Positions 1-8,215 of a stretch of 64,000 nucleotides of DNA are shown here, in pieces (positions within the stretch are counted from its first letter, which is position 1; each line of letters opens with the position of its first letter). Both the position numbers and the translations under genes were made by a program. Below the pieces are notes generated by a model that had not been told where the DNA came from, searched no databases, and saw only the letters and a program-made list of their open reading frames with translations. This stretch comes from a virus (taxonomy: Duplodnaviria; Heunggongvirae; Uroviricota; Caudoviricetes), in IMG/VR virus record IMGVR_UViG_3300043436_002205. The stretch is one strand, 5' to 3'.

Positions 1-50
1 GACTATGACTTCGTTATGTGGCGCTTGAAAAATCTAATAGAGGAAAGCAA

Positions 51-542
51 ATGAGCAACATGTTGAAATGGGCGGAAGCCGAACTTAAACTGGCTGGATA
101 TGATATTAATGATCCAGAAGATGGACCAAACCGTTGGCTTGCAGAAGGAACGCTTGAGCTTCTCAAAGTGTTCTCAGAACAAGGACACAGCGGTATGTCG
201 GCACCGTATGCAGTAGCTTTGTTTGAGAAGCTCGCATCATGGAAACCTATTGCTCCTTTGACTGGCGAATCTGACGAGTGGACGGAAGTCAGCGCAGATA
301 TGTGGCAGAACAAACGTAACAGTTCTGTCTTTAAGGATGAAGATGGGCGACCATACTGGATGGATGGTCGAGTGTTTTGGGAATGGTATTCATCGCCAGA
401 TATTGACGAAGGTAAACCATATAAGAGCTACTATACGGGTCGTGAAAGCCGAGTGTTTATTGAGTTTCCGTGGACACAACCAGAAAAGCCTGAGTATGTT
501 TTTGTACCAACAGAACAGTTTCCAAACGAGGTAATCGAATGA
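51..542 (+). CDS. hypothetical phage protein (an alternative start at 18 is possible)
   Basis: Long ORF. An AGGAAAG RBS sits 5 nt before the ATG at 51. No family motif recognised. Confidence 0.5.
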   Translation: MSNMLKWAEAELKLAGYDINDPEDGPNRWLAEGTLELLKVFSEQGHSGMSAPYAVALFEKLASWKPIAPLTGESDEWTEVSADMWQNKRNSSVFKDEDGRPYWMDGRVFWEWYSSPDIDEGKPYKSYYTGRESRVFIEFPWTQPEKPEYVFVPTEQFPNEVIE

Positions 543-721
543 CTGAGTTAGTATGTGAAGGGTGTAAACAGCCACTCACCGATTGTGGTCCTATCGGTTG
601 GGAATGCTGCAATAAGGATTGTACATACGACCAAGATATCTATATCAGATGGCTGCGTAAAGACAAAGAACGTAAAGAACGAGCCGAACTTGCTCGACTA
701 AAAGAAAAATACGAGGGATAA
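539..721 (+). CDS. small Cys-rich (zinc-ribbon-like) protein
   Basis: ATGA start/stop overlap with the upstream gene. CxxC...CC..C pattern (CEGCKQ...WECCNKDC). Confidence 0.4.
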   Translation: MTELVCEGCKQPLTDCGPIGWECCNKDCTYDQDIYIRWLRKDKERKERAELARLKEKYEG

Positions 722-723
722 AG

Positions 724-1383
724 ATGCGTGTATACATAGGACCTTATCGCTACCGTTGGATTTCTAAAGTCCATGATCGTTGGATGGATAGAAAGTACGC
801 CGAGACATGGTGGGATATGGATGAAGACAAGTATACTTGGATGGACAAGTTTACTTACAAACTCGAGAGTGCCCTTCAAACTCTCTATAACAAAACTATC
901 AATAAGTATCTTGACAAAGCTCAACGCAAGGTTAAGATCCACGTTGACGGATACGATGTTTGGGGTGCGGATCATACGATCGCAATGCTTGTTCATCCTT
1001 TGCTGTTGAAGCTGAAAGAGAACAAGCACGGTGCACCTTATGTTGATGATGAGGATGTTCCTGAGCATCTTCGTAGCACTGCTGCACCACCAAAAAGGGA
1101 TGAATGGGACATTGATGATAACCACGAAGCACGTTGGGACTGGGTTCTCGACGAGATGATCTGGGCATTCGAGCAATGCGCAAAGGACGACACTGGTGAC
1201 GATCAATTCTACTCTGGTGAGGTTGATTGGAAGTTTGTAAAAGAAGACGACAAATACTCTAGAATGGAATATGGCCCGAACCATACGTTCAAGGTAGACG
1301 AAGAAGGTAAGAAAGCTCACTACGATCGCATCAAGAACGGCCACCGACTTTTTGGAAAGTATTATTTTTCACTTTGGGATTAA
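724..1383 (+). CDS. hypothetical protein (acidic, Trp-rich)
   Basis: 219-aa ORF with tight spacing to the upstream gene. Confidence 0.5.
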   Translation: MRVYIGPYRYRWISKVHDRWMDRKYAETWWDMDEDKYTWMDKFTYKLESALQTLYNKTINKYLDKAQRKVKIHVDGYDVWGADHTIAMLVHPLLLKLKENKHGAPYVDDEDVPEHLRSTAAPPKRDEWDIDDNHEARWDWVLDEMIWAFEQCAKDDTGDDQFYSGEVDWKFVKEDDKYSRMEYGPNHTFKVDEEGKKAHYDRIKNGHRLFGKYYFSLWD

Positions 1384-1404
1384 TTTTACAAAAATTTATT
1401 CCAA

Positions 1405-1436
1405 CTGTTATACGATTGTTACATCTTCAATATAAT
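1405..1436 (+). promoter_or_regulatory. Pho-box-like direct repeats (CTGTTAT-acga-TTGTTAC, 11-bp periodicity) followed by a TATAAT -10 box, upstream of pstS
   Basis: Two 7-bp direct repeats match the E. coli Pho-box half-site CTGTCAT with a 4-bp spacer. A perfect TATAAT lies at 1431-1436. A hairpin (ATATCCC..GGGATAT) and an AAGGAGA RBS follow in the leader. Confidence 0.45.
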
Positions 1437-1484
1437 ATAGTAATATCCCCAATGAATAGGGATATTTAAACAAAGGAGAATTAT

Positions 1485-2450
1485 ATGAAAGCTTTACTAT
1501 CAGCGGCGGCAATTATTGCTTTGGCGTCCACGACTGCGTTTGCAAGAGATAACGTTCAAGTAACAGGATCGTCTACAGTACTACCATATGCAACCATTGT
1601 CGCAGAGGCATTTGGTGAAAATTTTGATTTTCCGTCGCCAGTAGTTGAAGGTGGTGGTTCGGGTGCAGGCCGTAAGAAGCTCTGCGAAGGTGTTGGTGAA
1701 AACACTGTTGACATCGCAAATAGTTCTTCAAAGATGAAGGATGAAGAAAGAGCCAAGTGTGAAGAAGCAATTGGTGAAGTGACTGAGGTTCGTATTGGTT
1801 ATGACGGTATCGTGTTTGCATCGAACATCGATCAACTTAATATCGATAATCTAACAGTCGAACAACTCTATAGCGCTCTACACGAGTCGAGCACTGCAAA
1901 ACTCTGGAGTGAAGTCGACTCGACTCTTCCAGAAGTAGCAATCCTTGCATACATTCCAGGTACCAAACACGGCACTCGTGAAGTGTTCGATGTAAAGGTG
2001 ATGGAAGAAGGTTGTAAAGCAGCTCTCGGTGTTGAGAAACTCGATGACGATCAAAAGAAAGCTTGTGTGAAAGTAAGAACTGACGGTGCAGCAGTTGACA
2101 TCGATGGCGACTACACAGAAACACTTGCTCGTCTTGATGCTAATAAAACATCGCTAGGTGTGTTTGGTCTTAGCTTCTATCAGAACAACACTGATAAACT
2201 AGAAGTTGCCACGGTAAGTGGCGTGGCACCAAGCGTAGAAACCATCTCAAGCGGTGACTATCCAATCAGCCGTCCACTTTACTTCTACGTGAAGAACGCT
2301 CACCTCAGCGTCATTCCTGGTCTGAAGGAATACATCGAGTTCTTCGTGAGTGATGAGATGGCAGGTCCTGATGGCGCTCTTGCACAGTATGGATTGGTTC
2401 CAGATCCAGAACTTGCAGCTACTCAGGCTGAAGTTTCTGCTCTTAAATAA
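1485..2450 (+). CDS. pstS: phosphate ABC transporter substrate-binding protein PstS, with signal peptide
   Basis: N-terminal signal peptide (AFA|RD). PstS-family motifs TGSSTVLPYA and YPISRPLYFYV. Length of 321 aa fits. Confidence 0.85.
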   Translation: MKALLSAAAIIALASTTAFARDNVQVTGSSTVLPYATIVAEAFGENFDFPSPVVEGGGSGAGRKKLCEGVGENTVDIANSSSKMKDEERAKCEEAIGEVTEVRIGYDGIVFASNIDQLNIDNLTVEQLYSALHESSTAKLWSEVDSTLPEVAILAYIPGTKHGTREVFDVKVMEEGCKAALGVEKLDDDQKKACVKVRTDGAAVDIDGDYTETLARLDANKTSLGVFGLSFYQNNTDKLEVATVSGVAPSVETISSGDYPISRPLYFYVKNAHLSVIPGLKEYIEFFVSDEMAGPDGALAQYGLVPDPELAATQAEVSALK

Positions 2451-2452
2451 GA

Positions 2453-3223
2453 ATGAAATATAAAAGCATCTTCATAAGTGATGTGCATTTAGGAACCAGA
2501 GGGTGTCAAGCAGACGCCCTCTGTGTTTTCTTAAAAAACAACACAAGCGAAAACCTATTCCTAGTTGGTGATATGCTGGATGGTTGGCGCTTAAAGAAAC
2601 GTTGGTACTTTCCACAGAGTCATGCCAATGTGATACGCAGAATACTCACGGCAGCTAAGCGTGGCACTAGAGTAGAATACATATTAGGTAATCACGATGA
2701 AGCAGGCCGTAAGTTTTTAAACTTTGATATCAGCTTCGGTAATATTAAAGTAACTAACAGACAAGACTACATAGGTTTAGACGGCAAACGTTATCTGGTT
2801 ATTCATGGTGACTTCTTTGACGTATTGATGCATGATAAAAAATGGTTGATGCACATTGGAGATACTTTGTATGACGCTATGATATATGCCAATGTTCAGT
2901 TTAATCGAGTAAGAAGTTTGTTTGGTATGGACTATTGGAGTTTAAGTAAATATCTAAAACAGAATACTAAACACGCGTTAAACTTTATCAATCGTTACGA
3001 AGAACATCTAGCTGCCTATTGTAAGCAACATGGATATGACGGAATAATTTGTGGTCACATTCATCATGCTGAAATAAAAGAAATAAATGGTGTTATATAC
3101 ATGAACGATGGCGACTGGGTCGAGAGTGCCACCGCTCTGGTAGAACACTTTGATGGAAGATGGGAGATAGTGCATTATGCCGAAGATCTTAATAGTTACA
3201 GACAACTTACCGAATCAGATTAA
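2453..3223 (+). CDS. calcineurin-like metallophosphoesterase of the LpxH/PlcP family (candidate phospholipase C PlcP-like)
   Basis: Motifs FISDVHLG, GDMLDGW, GNHDE, IHGDFFD, CGHIHH and GDW align with the LpxH-type metallophosphoesterase signature. It lies immediately upstream of, and overlaps, a GT4 gene, as in the plcP-agt lipid-remodelling pair of alphaproteobacteria. Confidence 0.7.
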   Translation: MKYKSIFISDVHLGTRGCQADALCVFLKNNTSENLFLVGDMLDGWRLKKRWYFPQSHANVIRRILTAAKRGTRVEYILGNHDEAGRKFLNFDISFGNIKVTNRQDYIGLDGKRYLVIHGDFFDVLMHDKKWLMHIGDTLYDAMIYANVQFNRVRSLFGMDYWSLSKYLKQNTKHALNFINRYEEHLAAYCKQHGYDGIICGHIHHAEIKEINGVIYMNDGDWVESATALVEHFDGRWEIVHYAEDLNSYRQLTESD

Positions 3224-4184
3224 TGGTGTGGTTACGACCTACAAAAATATTGAGACGTATGCGATTCGCGACGGTTATACTGTTGATTATATTCATCCCG
3301 GGATGTACGGCCATATTGATTGCCCAAAGTACAATGAAGTTAAGCTTGCCTGGGCACCTCCTTGGGTTGTTGGGAAAGAGATCAAGAAGATTGATCCGGA
3401 TTATATACACATCGCCACAGAAGGTCCTATGGGTATGTCTGCTAGAAGGTATCTTGCAATACGTGGGATTAAGTACAATACTGCTTACCATACTAAGTTT
3501 CCTGAAGGTGTAAGGACGTTACTAGGAATTCCTGAAGGAATTACTTGGGCAGTTGTGCGCTGGTTCCATAAGAATAGCAATAAGGTACTCACTACGACAA
3601 AATCAATGGTCGATGAACTTCATGCGCATGGATTTAATAACAATGTTATTCATTGGACTCGAGGAGTTGATAGGGATATATTCAAACCGGCAGTGAAAGA
3701 ACCATGCTCGCACATTAACCTCGTTTGCGTGAGTCGAGTAAGCAAAGAAAAAAATCTGGAAGCTTTTCTTGAGATAAACTACCCCAATGCAGTTAAAACT
3801 ATCGTAGGCGATGGTCCTATGTTAGAAACATACAAGAAGCAATATCCTTACGTGAACTTTGTAGGTGCCAAACGTGGTGCTGAACTCGCGCATTATTATC
3901 AACAGGCTGATGTTTTTGTGTTTCCTAGTCGTTGGGATACATTTGGATTGGTGATGATTGAGGCAATGGCATGCGGTACTCCGGTCGCTGCTTATCCTGT
4001 GCAAGGACCATTAGACGTAATAGATCAAGATGTAACTGGTTATATGGATGAGGATATCACTATCGCTATTAAAAAATCTCTTGACCTCGATAGAGAATCA
4101 GTATACAAATTCAGCATGAAATGGGATTGGGGAAACGCTTGGAACATTTTTCGAGACAATCTTATAAACTGTAAAACTAACTAG
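3177..4184 (+). CDS. glycosyltransferase family 4 (Agt-like glycosyl-diacylglycerol synthase candidate)
   Basis: Typical GT4 N-terminus (KILIVTDNLPNQINGVVTTY) and C-terminal EAMACGTPVAA motif. It overlaps the upstream gene by 47 nt. Confidence 0.8.
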   Translation: MPKILIVTDNLPNQINGVVTTYKNIETYAIRDGYTVDYIHPGMYGHIDCPKYNEVKLAWAPPWVVGKEIKKIDPDYIHIATEGPMGMSARRYLAIRGIKYNTAYHTKFPEGVRTLLGIPEGITWAVVRWFHKNSNKVLTTTKSMVDELHAHGFNNNVIHWTRGVDRDIFKPAVKEPCSHINLVCVSRVSKEKNLEAFLEINYPNAVKTIVGDGPMLETYKKQYPYVNFVGAKRGAELAHYYQQADVFVFPSRWDTFGLVMIEAMACGTPVAAYPVQGPLDVIDQDVTGYMDEDITIAIKKSLDLDRESVYKFSMKWDWGNAWNIFRDNLINCKTN

Positions 4185-4194
4185 AGGATAAACC

Positions 4195-4953
4195 ATGATT
4201 GTACTATTAGGATACGGCTTCGTTGGTAAAGCTCACTATAAAGCGTTTAGCCCTCATCACGAAATGTCTATCGTAGATCCGGCCTTCAGCAATATTCGTA
4301 TCAAAGACATAGAAAACATTAGTGGTGCTATCGTCTGTGTTTCGACTCCATCATCTGAAGATGGAAGCTGTGATATGAGCATAATCTATAATGTAATTCA
4401 AGACATTCCAAAAGAAGCTCCAATTCTCATTAAGAGCACGATATCGATGGAGGGATGGGAAACTCTCGAAAGAAACTTTCCTGAACACTCCATCACATTT
4501 AGTCCAGAATTTCTTCGAGCTGCAAGCGCAGACGACGACCTTAAGAACCTCACTCATGCGTTCTTGGCTGGCGGTAACGTTCAATACTGGTTAGATTTTT
4601 ACACGACGGTGTATCCAGACATCAGCATAACTGTATGTAAGCCAAAGCACGCAATTGCCATCAAGTATTTTCGAAACTCGTTTCTTGCGGCAAAGTGTAG
4701 CTTCTTCAACGAGATCTACGATTTCTGTGAAACGCTCGGATTGGATTACGAGTCGGTTCGCTCTGGTGTCACGTTAGACTCTCGTATCGGTGAGAGCCAT
4801 ACTTTTGTAAATGAGAACGATAGAGGCTGGGGCGGAGCGTGTTTTCCAAAGGATACCGCGGCGATTCTGCAGACGGCAAAGAACTCAGGCGTCGAGCTAC
4901 AGACGCTAGAAGCTGCCGTAAAATATAATGAGTCTGTTCGAAAAAAAGTTTAA
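4195..4953 (+). CDS. truncated UDP-glucose/GDP-mannose 6-dehydrogenase family protein (Ugd-like, lacks the C-terminal UDP-binding domain)
   Basis: Rossmann N-terminus GYGFVGKA. Catalytic-Cys motif GWGGACFPKD. The ORF ends about 30 aa after that Cys, at 252 aa against roughly 390-440 aa for Ugd. Confidence 0.6.
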   Translation: MIVLLGYGFVGKAHYKAFSPHHEMSIVDPAFSNIRIKDIENISGAIVCVSTPSSEDGSCDMSIIYNVIQDIPKEAPILIKSTISMEGWETLERNFPEHSITFSPEFLRAASADDDLKNLTHAFLAGGNVQYWLDFYTTVYPDISITVCKPKHAIAIKYFRNSFLAAKCSFFNEIYDFCETLGLDYESVRSGVTLDSRIGESHTFVNENDRGWGGACFPKDTAAILQTAKNSGVELQTLEAAVKYNESVRKKV

Positions 4954-5016
4954 GAAAGCCATTGACATTTGCTTCTACATTGATTATATCTATATTGTAA
5001 GCAATGGAGAACAACT

Positions 5017-5295
5017 ATGGCTATCGCAATCGTGACCCCCGAAGAAGTTGAAGTCGACGTCTGCTACGGCAACTTTGACGGTTCCTATACCAAAACTATG
5101 TATGTAGTTGACTTCTTTAGAACTGAAGTAGGTATGTTGCACGGCGATCTCGACACATCGATGTATATCAAGACTGAACACGATGCAAAGATGATGGCCC
5201 GACTTTATGAACTCGGCATGACCGGCCGTGGCGAATACAACGAGATTACCTTTAACAAGATTTTTGAAGATGCAGAGGTTGGCGAAGATGCCTAA
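5017..5295 (+). CDS. hypothetical protein
   Basis: 92-aa ORF whose stop overlaps the start of the next gene. Confidence 0.4.
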   Translation: MAIAIVTPEEVEVDVCYGNFDGSYTKTMYVVDFFRTEVGMLHGDLDTSMYIKTEHDAKMMARLYELGMTGRGEYNEITFNKIFEDAEVGEDA

Positions 5296-5812
5296 GGTTG
5301 AAGTTCTCGTAGGTCTGCCTGGTTCAGGTAAGTCGACTCGATTGTCGTTTGTTGACGATCCGGAGTTTGGTGGAGACGTCTTTGTGTATAGCACTGATGC
5401 ATATATCGAAGCTCGAGCCAAAGAAGCTGGTAAGTCTTACGACGACGTGTTCGGTGATCACATCAACGAAGCAACTAAGCATATGAATAATGTGCTTGCA
5501 ATTGCTATCAGCGCAGGGATTGATGTGTACTGGGATCAGACTAATATGTCTTCGAAGAAGCGTAAGAGCATCTTGTCGAAGTTCCCTAAGAACTATCACA
5601 AGGAATGTTGGTGCGTTCGTGTTCCTCAGACTGCTGAAGAGTGGGCTGAACTCGATCGTCGCCTTGATTCTCGTCCTGGGAAGACTATCCCTCATCACAT
5701 CATTGAAGCTATGGCTGATTCCTATGTTGAACCTGAACTCGATGAAGGCTTCGATAAGATCACCATTGTCGACATCTTTTGCAATGTAATTATGGAGAAG
5801 AAAAATGCATGA
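5288..5812 (+). CDS. pnk: polynucleotide 5'-kinase (kinase domain of T4 Pnk, as a stand-alone gene)
   Basis: Walker A GLPGSGKST. The DQTN motif and RxxRxGKxIP match the T4 Pnk kinase domain (DTN; RNSKRGTKAVPIDVL). The start is chosen at the ATG that overlaps the upstream stop. Confidence 0.7.
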   Translation: MPKVEVLVGLPGSGKSTRLSFVDDPEFGGDVFVYSTDAYIEARAKEAGKSYDDVFGDHINEATKHMNNVLAIAISAGIDVYWDQTNMSSKKRKSILSKFPKNYHKECWCVRVPQTAEEWAELDRRLDSRPGKTIPHHIIEAMADSYVEPELDEGFDKITIVDIFCNVIMEKKNA

Positions 5813-5852
5813 TATTGCGTACTTAGTTATTAATTGGAAATTGGAGGAATAG

Positions 5853-6038
5853 ATGGCTTTTTATACTATGATTGGCTTCATTGTCGTTGCGGCTGTGATT
5901 GGTGTTGGTGCGTATTGGGTGGTGTCAAATATCACGTTTAAACGCCAGCCTGAACGCTTCACGTATACCAAAGATGAAGATGGTAATGAATACGTCCGTG
6001 ATAACACTGTAACAACGAAAGATAAACCTGATGTTTAA
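5853..6038 (+). CDS. small membrane protein (possible partner of the SPFH protein)
   Basis: Single TM helix at the N-terminus. It overlaps the start of the SPFH gene. Confidence 0.4.
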   Translation: MAFYTMIGFIVVAAVIGVGAYWVVSNITFKRQPERFTYTKDEDGNEYVRDNTVTTKDKPDV

Positions 6039-6987
6039 ACCTGATCGCTATGACTTTAACACTAAAGCTGAGTATGAAGCAGCACTAAATCAATATAATG
6101 AACGTAAAAGGAAAATGAAAATGAATGCTATCGTTGGTGGAACTATCGCTACTGTCGTCGGTCTTACTGCACTGACTGTAATTGGCGGATCGTGGTATAC
6201 TGTTGATGAAGGTTACCGTGGTGTAACTCTTCGTAACGGTGCCGTGGTTGGTACTGCAGAACCAGGTCTTGGATTTAAAATCCCTTTGATCGAAAAGGTG
6301 GTTGATATTTCTGTTCAATCACAGGCTCAGTTGTACGAGAACATCCTTGCTTACTCTCGTGATCAACAGACTGCGGGTCTAAACCTGTCTGTTAACTATC
6401 GCTTCCCTGCAGATCAAGTTGAGACGATCTATCGTGAATATGGTGGCGAAGCTGGCGTGATCTCTCGCTTGCTTGATCGTCAGGTTCTTGAAGAAGTCAA
6501 GAACGTCTTTGGTAAGTTCAACGCAGCAACCGCTATTCAGGAACGTGAACGTCTTGCTGCAGAAGTTCAGATGGCAATCCAGAAAGCTGTAATTGGTCCT
6601 ATCATCGTTGAGTCGGTTCAAATTGAGAACATCGACTTCTCTGATGCTTATGAACAATCGATTGAAGCTCGTATGCTTGCAGAAGTCGAAGTGCAAAAGG
6701 TTCGGCAGAACGCAGAACGTGAAAAGGTTCAGGCTGAGATCGTCGTGACTCAGGCACAGGCACAAGCCGACGCTCAACTAGCTCAAGCAGTTGCGGCCGC
6801 AGAAGCAACTCGTATTCAAGGTGAAGCAGAAGCAAGCGCGATTAAGGCGAAAGCAGAAGCTCTGAAGGATAACGCAGGTTTGATTGCTCTAGTTCAAGCT
6901 GAAAAGTGGAACGGTGCTCTTCCTACCACTATGATCCCAGACTCGACTGTTCCATTCATGGACGTTGTTGCTAAGCCAGCCCAGTAA
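6031..6987 (+). CDS. SPFH/band-7 (prohibitin/HflC-like) domain protein
   Basis: N-terminal TM segment, band-7 core (GYRGVTLRNGAVVG...KIPLIEKV) and a C-terminal Ala/Glu/Gln coiled-coil. Confidence 0.75.
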   Translation: MFKPDRYDFNTKAEYEAALNQYNERKRKMKMNAIVGGTIATVVGLTALTVIGGSWYTVDEGYRGVTLRNGAVVGTAEPGLGFKIPLIEKVVDISVQSQAQLYENILAYSRDQQTAGLNLSVNYRFPADQVETIYREYGGEAGVISRLLDRQVLEEVKNVFGKFNAATAIQERERLAAEVQMAIQKAVIGPIIVESVQIENIDFSDAYEQSIEARMLAEVEVQKVRQNAEREKVQAEIVVTQAQAQADAQLAQAVAAAEATRIQGEAEASAIKAKAEALKDNAGLIALVQAEKWNGALPTTMIPDSTVPFMDVVAKPAQ

Positions 6988-7004
6988 GATAAAAATATGA
7001 AGAA

Positions 7005-7030
7005 AAAGAGCGCTTCGGCGCTCTTTTTTG
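7005..7030 (+). terminator. rho-independent terminator
   Basis: AGAGCGC-ttcg-GCGCTCT stem followed by TTTTTT. Confidence 0.7.
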
Positions 7031-7090
7031 TTTACAATCTCATAAAACTAGTTTATACAGAACAAGTATGAACCAATTCGGAGAATCGTT

Positions 7091-8215
7091 ATGGAAGTTA
7101 AAACAAGCACTGAGAACCTGTATAAGGTAGATACAAAAGGTAAGACGCGAGTCTGGCGAGCAGAGACCGGCACTGATGGAACTCGATGGGGTCTACGGAC
7201 GATCTCAGGGCTTCAGGACGGAAAACAGATTACTTCTGAATGGACCTTCGTTGAACAAAAGAACGTCGGACGCTCAAACGAGACGTCTCTCGAAGCGCAA
7301 GCAAACGCTGAGATGGTATCTGAAATGCAGAAGAAAGAAGATACTGGCTATTTCTCTAACATCGATATGATCCATACCTTTGATAAGTTCAAGCCGATGT
7401 TGGCTGAGAAGTATGAAGAGGTTCCGGTTAACTGGTCAAAGGGATACATCTATAGTCAACCGAAGCTCGATGGCATTCGTTGCATCGCTCGTAAGGATGG
7501 TCTATGGACTCGCGCAGGAAAAGAAATCGTCGCTGTTCCTCACGTCTGGGAGTCGCTGCAGTCTTATTTTGAAAAGAATCCAAACTTAATTCTTGACGGC
7601 GAACTCTATAATCACGAGCTGAAGGATGACTTCAACACCATCACCTCGATGGTTCGTAAGACAAAACCGAAGCCCGAAGACATCATGAAATCGAAGGAAC
7701 TCGTGCAGTATCACGTCTATGACGTCTATGTGACTGATAGTCCGGATCTGCCGTTCCGTAAGCGTGAGCTGTTGCGCTACGAAGCTTCGAACGAATTCGT
7801 AAAGATGGTTCCGACCATGCAGGTCAACGATCCGCAGTCGATCGATACTCTGTATGAGGGTTATCTCGAACATGGATACGAAGGTCAGATGATCCGCATC
7901 GATGGTCGTTACGAGAACAAGCGTACGAAAAACTTGCTGAAGCGTAAAGAGTTCTTGACCGACGAGTTCGAAGTCAAGGAAATGATGTCTGGTATTGGAA
8001 ACTGGCAGGGATGCACTAAACATTTTGTTTTGAAACTGAATGATACTCGTGACTTCCAAGCTGGTGTTCGTGGTGACATGGACACTCTACGTGCTCTCTG
8101 GGATGCAGGCAAGAAACCCGATTGGGTTACTCTTCGCTACTTCACTCCGACTCCGGATGGCGTTCCTCGGTTTCCAGTCGTAATCGATTGGGGCTTTGGA
8201 AAAAGAGAAGATTAA
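7091..8215 (+). CDS. ATP-dependent DNA ligase
   Basis: Nucleotidyltransferase motif I KLDGIR and motif IV-like EGQMIR. Size and layout resemble T7-type ligases. Confidence 0.8.
   Translation: MEVKTSTENLYKVDTKGKTRVWRAETGTDGTRWGLRTISGLQDGKQITSEWTFVEQKNVGRSNETSLEAQANAEMVSEMQKKEDTGYFSNIDMIHTFDKFKPMLAEKYEEVPVNWSKGYIYSQPKLDGIRCIARKDGLWTRAGKEIVAVPHVWESLQSYFEKNPNLILDGELYNHELKDDFNTITSMVRKTKPKPEDIMKSKELVQYHVYDVYVTDSPDLPFRKRELLRYEASNEFVKMVPTMQVNDPQSIDTLYEGYLEHGYEGQMIRIDGRYENKRTKNLLKRKEFLTDEFEVKEMMSGIGNWQGCTKHFVLKLNDTRDFQAGVRGDMDTLRALWDAGKKPDWVTLRYFTPTPDGVPRFPVVIDWGFGKRED

Follow-up and report, generated by a model that had tools for sequence, protein, structure and literature searches.

Organization of the pstS locus

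The stretch of DNA that was analysed, referred to as the window, is 64,000 nucleotides long and encodes the major head protein, portal, sheath, terminase, and scaffold genes of a T4-like myovirus. Many assemblies contain the same phage, which also occurs on a contig of 205 kb. It has no close sequenced isolate, and a megablast search with positions 1–8000 against 50,697 phage records gave no match. The nearest major capsid proteins are about 66% identical and belong to the Sinorhizobium phages phiM12 and phiN3, the Stenotrophomonas phage DLP6, and the Methylophilales phage Melnitz. A heterotrophic proteobacterium of the alphaproteobacterial class is the probable host. The gene pstS, which encodes a periplasmic phosphate-binding protein, is located close to the start of the window and is accompanied by the following features:

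1383–1400, plus strand: candidate remnant of a weak distal Pho box, ATTTTAC-aaaa-ATTTATT, which keeps the 11-bp phase of the main box
1405–1422, plus strand: Pho box CTGTTAT-acga-TTGTTAC, as read from the sequence; predicted PhoB dimer site at approximately -38 to -21
1431–1436, plus strand: -10 hexamer, perfect TATAAT, 8 bp downstream of the proximal repeat
1442–1466, plus strand: leader hairpin with an 8-bp stem (AATATCCC/GGGATATT) and a 9-nt loop, -8 kcal/mol
1473–1478, plus strand: ribosome-binding site AAGGAG, 6 nt 5' of the pstS ATG (1485)
1485–2450, plus strand: pstS (Pfam PBP_like_2, E = 8e-54; NCBIfam PstS family)
2453–3223, plus strand: PlcP-like metallophosphoesterase, LpxH-related (Pfam Metallophos), starting 2 nt past the pstS stop codon
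2497–2523, plus strand: hairpin within plcP that resembles a terminator; its stem of 11 bp includes 7 G-C pairs and is followed by TGTTTTCTT; -24 kcal/mol
3177–4184, plus strand: Agt-like GT4 glycosyltransferase (Pfam Glycos_transf_1 and Glyco_transf_4), overlapping the end of plcP
4195–4953, plus strand: short UDP-glucose/nucleotide-sugar dehydrogenase-like ORF, 252 aa

The two 7-bp direct repeats, CTGTTAT (1405–1411) and TTGTTAC (1416–1422), are arranged in tandem and separated by the 4-bp spacer ACGA (1412–1415), which results in an 11-bp period. The proximal repeat is separated from TATAAT by 8 bp (ATCTTCAA), whereas the distance between a classical Pho box and the -10 element is 10 bp. 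An alternative -10 element, TAATAT (1433–1438), would give the 10-bp distance. The hexamer 17 bp 5' of TATAAT, TTATAC, matches TTGACA at two of six positions, and a sigma-70 scan found no -35/-10 promoter at the pstS promoter site. An earlier note on this DNA had described direct repeats with the 7-bp plus 4-bp architecture of a Pho box at 1405–1436, which lie upstream of a perfect TATAAT, replace the -35 element, and are followed by a short hairpin and a ribosome-binding site. Both the description and the coordinates proved to be correct.

The ORF upstream of pstS, which is annotated without a function, ends at 1383, and no terminator was found in the window between this end and the Pho box. 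In the candidate distal remnant, the first half-site (at 1383) scores +4.3 and the second (at 1394) -8.3, and thus only the first is good. This ATTTTAC (1383–1389) is the sole surviving upstream phased repeat in the window and a candidate third repeat. Two ORFs 5' of pstS is an anti-defence gene, the ORF at 51–542 on the plus strand, which matches the Pfam family Tad3 (Thoeris inhibitor) with an E-value of 5.5e-39.

The phage has early and late promoters of other types:

30188, 31194, 31901, 33319, 37613, 44437, 49701, and 52837, minus strand: eight exact copies of the T4-type late promoter TATAAATA, before structural genes
16831, 21103, 24037, 24331, and 26250, plus strand: examples of early promoters, perfect TTGACA-17-TATnnT

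No TATAAATA late promoter was found on the plus strand of the window. We rejected the idea that the pstS site represents a general promoter of the phage: TGTTAC-N7-10-TAnnnT in a gene-appropriate context occurs only at pstS, and the early and late promoters differ from it.

Proteins encoded by pstS and the downstream genes

The signal peptide of PstS ends with AFA, and the residues after the cleavage site are RD. The protein is 59–67% identical to PstS of Rhodobacterales and Rhizobiales. Neither pstC nor pstB was found in the window, and the same holds for all 81 phage loci. The contigs of "Acinetobacter phage MD-2021a" (L002, CAKLQH020000006.1) were rejected as phage DNA, as they are bacterial chromosome (pstSCAB, aroP, lrp), and were used solely as a pstC/pstB query.

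The PlcP-like protein scores 39–46 bits against LpxH models, below their cut-offs of 134–190 and including 46 bits where the cut-off is 134, and is 56% identical to its homologue from the Pelagibacter phage Mosig. A homology search with the protein found thousands of metagenomic relatives that bear only the pipeline name "LpxH", which does not separate PlcP from LpxH. We infer the PlcP–Agt identity from the protein families and the gene pairing, in which a non-LpxH metallophosphoesterase is followed by a GT4 glycosyltransferase. No published description of a phage-borne plcP-agt pair was found in the literature searched. In the dehydrogenase-like ORF, the N-terminal and central domains are matched, and the C-terminal UDP-binding domain is missing. 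If active, the enzyme could provide the UDP-glucuronate needed for a glycolipid that contains glucuronic acid.

The direct repeats resemble Pho boxes of Rhodobacterales and Rhizobiales

In rhizobia and E. coli, the PHO box consists of two CTGTCAT-type direct repeats of 7 nt with a 4-nt spacer (PMC4415409, PMC3131613). Compared with the strict E. coli sequence CTGTCAT-N4-CTGTCAT, the window site matches at 10 of 14 positions. With its four mismatches, it is missed by a search that allows up to three, a threshold at which 6.7 chance matches are expected. The degenerate pattern YTGTYAY-N4-YTGTYAY, which was fitted after the site had been seen, occurs once in 64 kb versus 0.08 expected occurrences. 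The E. coli criterion alone is unconvincing, and an independent comparator was therefore built from the upstream regions of bacterial pstS genes.

A search with a profile built from PstS proteins of phages and bacteria identified 80 genomic loci, the closest of which, with the identities given above, are from Rhodobacterales and Rhizobiales. The gene pstC is located downstream of pstS in 69 of 79 bacterial loci. The small low-GC contigs L083, L098, and L105, which were binned into Bacteroidota or Rhodobacteraceae MAGs, carry a pstS of the phage type and probably represent phage DNA; these public records appear to be mislabelled, as do those of "Acinetobacter phage MD-2021a". Gibbs sampling without a prior pattern, applied to 300 bp upstream of 73 chromosomal pstS genes of Rhodobacterales and Rhizobiales, yielded a motif of 11-bp-phased CTGT[T/C]A[C/T] repeats, typically TGTCAT-N5-TGTTAC-N5-TGTCAC. 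With the resulting 18-mer matrix, the segment 1405–1422 ranks first of approximately 128,000 window positions on both strands. Its score of 17.7 bits compares with 13.5 bits for the next best position and with a median of 20.1 bits for the training sites. In shuffled windows, 0.07 sites are expected at 17.7 bits or more, and the chance of such a site within about 100 bp before pstS on the correct strand is about 5e-5.

On these scores, the better comparator for the window site is the alphaproteobacterial form CTGTCAT-N4-CTGTTAC and not the E. coli consensus. The two-repeat architecture proposed in the earlier note stands, and its assignment of the half-sites to the E. coli type gives way to the alphaproteobacterial form, which fits better than a consensus mismatched at four of 14 positions. 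In the matrix scan that it had proposed, the site is the top match in the window to the matrix of the presumed host or donor clade, and the repeats match the sites upstream of pstSCAB in Rhodobacterales and Rhizobiales. In the Pelagibacter phage Mosig, in which pstS and plcP are divergent, intergenic GTTAA repeats seemed at first to be related to the window site, but were rejected, as they score 5 bits or less by the bacterial matrix.

The promoter is conserved in related phages

A scan of viral contigs identified 80 loci with pstS at 60–91% identity. The gene neighbourhoods of these loci vary widely, and pstS therefore moves as a cassette. When the bacterial matrix was applied to the 61 distinct upstream regions of the phage loci, 39 contained a gene-strand match between -170 and -30 that reached 12 bits or more, whereas the remainder of those loci predicts 0.003 matches per region. 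Examples are TTGTCAT-aaaa-CTGTTAC (L015), CTGTCAC-aaaa-CTGTTAC (L032), and CTGTCAT-aaaa-TTGTTAC (L021). The conservation of the motif in related phages that carry pstS, the absence of which the earlier note had named as grounds for refutation, is thus borne out. In addition, exact matches to TGTYAY-N5-TGTYAY in 163 loci are nearly all positioned just 5' of pstS, on the pstS strand. The second strict match in L035 (at 2797) lies inside an ordinary TTGACA promoter of an unrelated gene and is probably a chance occurrence.

The layout that recurs before phage pstS genes consists of a half-site, 4 bp, YTGTTAC, 8–10 bp, and the -10 element. The relatives retain a -10-like element, often TGnTATAAT, and fall into two classes, in which it is located 8 or 10 bp past YTGTTAC. 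De novo Gibbs sampling on the phage upstream regions, with the window left out, gave the consensus ntgTnATAaaacTGTTACAAtanTgTgaTAtAnT, composed of the distal repeat, an A-rich spacer, the proximal YTGTTAC, and a -10 element, often TG-extended, 8 or 10 bp further on. The information content of this phage matrix is high in the repeats and the -10 element and low between them. The site at 1405 is its top match in the window, with 18.8 bits versus 9.2 bits for the next one. The leader and the flanking intergenic DNA cannot be aligned between lineages, unlike the box.

When half-site scores are profiled over 48 phage sites, weaker maxima appear at -22 and -33, counted from the proximal repeat. In L015 and L028, there are four phased repeats, ATTTTAC-aaaa-ATTTCAC-aaaa-TTGTCAT-aaaa-CTGTTAC. 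In the closest relatives of the window locus, L003, L008, and L012, the TTGTTAC repeat and the -10 element are kept together with a degenerate distal repeat that reads ATTTAAC or GCTTAAT, and the scores are 6–14 bits; the window's box is better than theirs. The window spacer ACGA is less A/T-rich than AAAA, which is typical among the relatives. A terminator is located just 5' of the box in 15 of 47 relatives, and pstS in those relatives therefore depends on the Pho-box promoter.

The same box precedes a gene for a PiT-like membrane protein

Exact occurrences of TGTCAYAAAAYTGTTACA among 2.9 million viral contigs are confined to 15 stretches, of which ten are positioned upstream of pstS. Three others precede a gene for a 319-aa multi-pass membrane protein:

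L164, 5071–5088, minus strand: motif before the 319-aa protein gene
L171, 2100–2117, minus strand: motif before the 319-aa protein gene
L175, 9427–9444, plus strand: motif before the 319-aa protein gene

The protein has no match in Pfam, NCBIfam, or PHROGs. In the PDB, its profile matches a single entry, 6L85 (E = 3.6e-4), which is a PiT phosphate transporter, and the alignment spans both signature motifs. In L066–L074, the gene is located directly downstream of pstS (for example, at 5291–6259 in L066 and 5053–6015 in L069), and its leader sequence is shared with the pstS genes of these loci. The 319-aa protein is probably a divergent, unannotated phosphate permease carried by phages. The box precedes both pstS and the PiT-like gene, and therefore the motif tracks the phosphate-uptake function and not one coding sequence. 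The 319-aa protein is very abundant in metagenomes, with more than 7,800 relatives, including some from Tara samples.

The leader forms a hairpin in most lineages

The leader hairpin of the window starts at the predicted 5' end of the transcript (approximately 1443) and leaves the ribosome-binding site uncovered. The hairpin is real, yet statistically unremarkable on its own (z = -1.09; 24 of 200 shuffled sequences fold equally well). The leaders of 45 phage lineages, the sequences of which are unrelated, fold better than shuffled sequences, with a mean z of -2.1. A hairpin between the -10 element and the ribosome-binding site, approximately 30–120 nt before the ATG, is present in almost every lineage among L003–L082. 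In several lineages (L053, L054–56, L072, and L041), the hairpin is followed by a T-run and resembles a terminator. A search of Rfam with window positions 1200–2700 found no family above the threshold. With low confidence, we propose that the leader hairpin is a stabiliser of the 5' end.

Possible transcription into the genes downstream of pstS

The gaps between pstS, plcP, agt, and the ugd-like ORF range from a 47-nt overlap to 10 nt. The hairpin inside plcP begins 45 nt into the gene, is followed by a T-run, and may act as an intragenic attenuator of transcription downstream of pstS. It is kept through synonymous differences in L047 (-23 kcal/mol) and L028 (-18 kcal/mol), weak in L005, and absent in Mosig. 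The order pstS-plcP-agt is limited to this phage among the related loci compared; in L005, L028, and L047, plcP-agt is located apart from pstS and lacks a Pho box. In L005 (approximately 4440–4460) and L028 (approximately 4450–4470), TATAAATA is positioned a few bases 5' of the plcP ATG, which suggests that the expression of plcP in these two phages is late rather than Pho-dependent.

In view of the hairpin within plcP, the gene order found only in this phage, and the unlinked plcP-agt pairs of the relatives, a co-regulation of the lipid genes with pstS is plausible but would be limited to this phage. Of the operon under PhoB control put forward in the earlier note, the part concerning the pstS promoter is retained as probable, and the extension to the whole of pstS-plcP-agt is weakened by the same hairpin and gene order. 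The statement in that note that the operon is expressed only when the host is phosphate-starved is an overstatement, as no terminator shields pstS from upstream transcription, and read-through can therefore give basal, PhoB-independent expression of pstS.

In the most far-reaching version, a single transcript from the Pho box would cover pstS, plcP, agt, and the ugd-like ORF, so that a lytic phage would exploit the starvation sensor of its host to switch on both phosphate uptake and the removal of phosphate from the membrane phospholipids of the host, with glycolipids taking their place. We regard this version as a doubtful possibility. If true, it would imply virus-driven lipid renovation, in which membrane phosphate feeds phage DNA synthesis. 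In a broader form of this version, a small phage Pho regulon would comprise pstS, the divergent PiT-like transporter, and the lipid-remodelling genes, and would be built from a portable Pho-box-plus-leader cassette in uncultured T4-like phages.

Proposed mechanism of pstS activation and alternative explanations

It is likely that the segment 1405–1436 is a PhoB-dependent promoter of the proteobacterial type that precedes the pstS gene of a T4-like phage. The repeats are probably a genuine proteobacterial-type Pho box, through which host PhoB would activate pstS. We infer the binding of PhoB, phosphate-dependent induction, the start site, the role of the hairpin, and downstream co-transcription from the sequence features described above.

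In a phosphate-starved infected cell, a dimer of phosphorylated host PhoB would bind head-to-tail to the 11-bp-phased repeats CTGTTAT and TTGTTAC. The repeats occupy the place of the missing -35 element, and bound PhoB, as in an activated promoter of class II type, would recruit the host sigma-70 RNA polymerase to TATAAT at 1431–1436, with transcription starting near 1443. The stem-loop at the 5' end of the transcript (1442–1466) would probably protect the end and leave AAGGAG free. PstS would be exported to the periplasm and, as pstC and pstB are both missing from the phage, would deliver phosphate to the PstCAB permease of the host, which would increase the uptake of phosphate for phage DNA synthesis. 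Transcription could run on through the three genes that follow (plcP, agt, and the ugd-like ORF), although probably at a reduced level, and this run-on would couple lipid renovation from phospholipid to glycolipid to the same starvation signal. The activation of transcription by PhoB involves contact with region 4 of sigma-70. If the phage remodels this region, as T4 does with AsiA, activation by PhoB could be limited to early infection.

Three other explanations of the repeats were weighed against a functional PhoB promoter. A chance resemblance in A/T-rich intergenic DNA might be argued from the four mismatches to the E. coli consensus and from the design of the degenerate pattern with the site already in view. 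The independent matrix does not share these weaknesses: the numbers of sites that it predicts by chance, both for the window and for the correct strand just before pstS, are far below one, and the site is kept in dozens of phage lineages. Chance resemblance is thus effectively refuted. Alternatively, the repeats might be used by another activator, either a middle-gene activator of the phage similar to MotA or a different host regulator of the OmpR family. The phage is T4-like in its major head, portal, sheath, and terminase genes and in its TATAAATA late promoters, and middle promoters of T4 are known to have an activator box at the -35 position as well. However, the motif occurs once in 64 kb and, in the related loci, almost only before pstS instead of before many middle genes, and the site is indistinguishable from those upstream of bacterial pstSCAB operons, which makes a different activator very unlikely.

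The repeats could also be a relic that arrived together with pstS from an alphaproteobacterial donor, with pstS now expressed independently of PhoB, either by read-through or from the perfect -10 element and its A/T-rich upstream sequence. The nearest proteins to the phage PstS are from Rhodobacterales and Rhizobiales, the promoters of which bear the same motif; furthermore, the window lacks a terminator between the upstream ORF and pstS, and the nearest relatives have a degenerate distal repeat. Nevertheless, we consider a relic unlikely. The repeats, their 11-bp phase, and the distance to the -10 element persist in at least 39 of the 61 lineages despite flanks that cannot be aligned. The -10 element is A/T-rich and phage-like and not that of the donor, so the promoter was rebuilt around the box. 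Moreover, the same box precedes the unrelated PiT-like phosphate-uptake gene, and in the 15 of 47 relatives with a terminator just upstream of the box, pstS depends on the Pho-box promoter.

The PhoB-dependent promoter that we favour is strongly supported by the comparisons and extends host-regulator control to uncultured T4-like phages that form a large, widespread group and have a pstS and a Pho box of alphaproteobacterial type. The analysis yields a matrix for finding phage genes that are wired into the phosphate sensing of the host, and the window offers a natural case in which lipid-remodelling genes have possibly been brought under the control of a phosphate sensor. If PhoB control is confirmed, the phosphate-acquisition genes of phages in metagenomes would have to be regarded as conditionally expressed and not constitutive, which would change biogeochemical modelling.

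Comparison with known PhoB-controlled and phage promoters

The window site shares its tandem repeats, their orientation, and the replacement of the -35 element before pstS, about one helical turn from a good -10 element, with the PhoB promoters of proteobacteria, such as those of E. coli pstS and phoA and of pstS in Sinorhizobium and Rhodobacterales. The half-site form YTGTTAC is common to the phage site and the sampled alphaproteobacterial pstSCAB promoters. In contrast to the proteobacterial promoters, the phage site is part of a lytic T4-like genome and serves a pstS gene that is not accompanied by pstCAB; TATAAT is closer by 2 bp, and the site is set in an A/T-rich context with a leader hairpin. 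Bacterial pstS promoters commonly have three to four phased repeats, whereas the window has one clear box.

To our knowledge, the control of phage metabolic genes by a host regulator has been demonstrated only in cyanophages. In the cyanophages P-SSM2 and S-PM2d, pstS responds to the PhoBR two-component system of the host (PMC10976474, citing Zeng and Chisholm 2012). In these cases, too, a T4-like phage carries a lone, host-derived pstS under a host response regulator, which for the window is predicted from the sequence. The cyanobacterial Pho box is composed of 8-bp PyTTAAPyPy(T/A) repeats with a 3-bp spacer, whereas the window site is of the CTGTCAT/CTGTTAC type. The PstS of the window belongs to a different lineage, and cyanophage pstS genes were not matched at E ≤ 1e-5. 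According to experimental work with one cyanophage, Pho boxes identified in silico in phage genomes are unreliable and often fail experimentally (PMC10976474).

In marine heterotrophic bacteria, plcP-agt clusters are located behind Pho boxes (Sebastian et al. 2016, PMC4796936), with the same order of an LpxH-like metallophosphoesterase and a GT4 glycosyltransferase. The pair in the window differs from these clusters in that it is carried by a phage and would borrow the pstS promoter, and in related phages it is not linked to a Pho box. The binding of PhoB to the stx2 promoter region of prophage BP-933W (PMC3978041) likewise places host PhoB on a phage-borne promoter in a proteobacterium, but there the target is a virulence gene of a temperate prophage and is not involved in phosphate acquisition. 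Middle promoters of T4 resemble the window site in that the MotA box replaces the -35 element upstream of a sigma-70 -10 element; however, both the sequence and the activator differ. The MotA box precedes many genes, whereas the window motif is specific to phosphate-uptake genes and does not belong to the MotA family. Judged by its sequence, the pstS locus would work on the same principle as that of the cyanophages and is an extension of a known phenomenon, from which it differs in its proteobacterial box.
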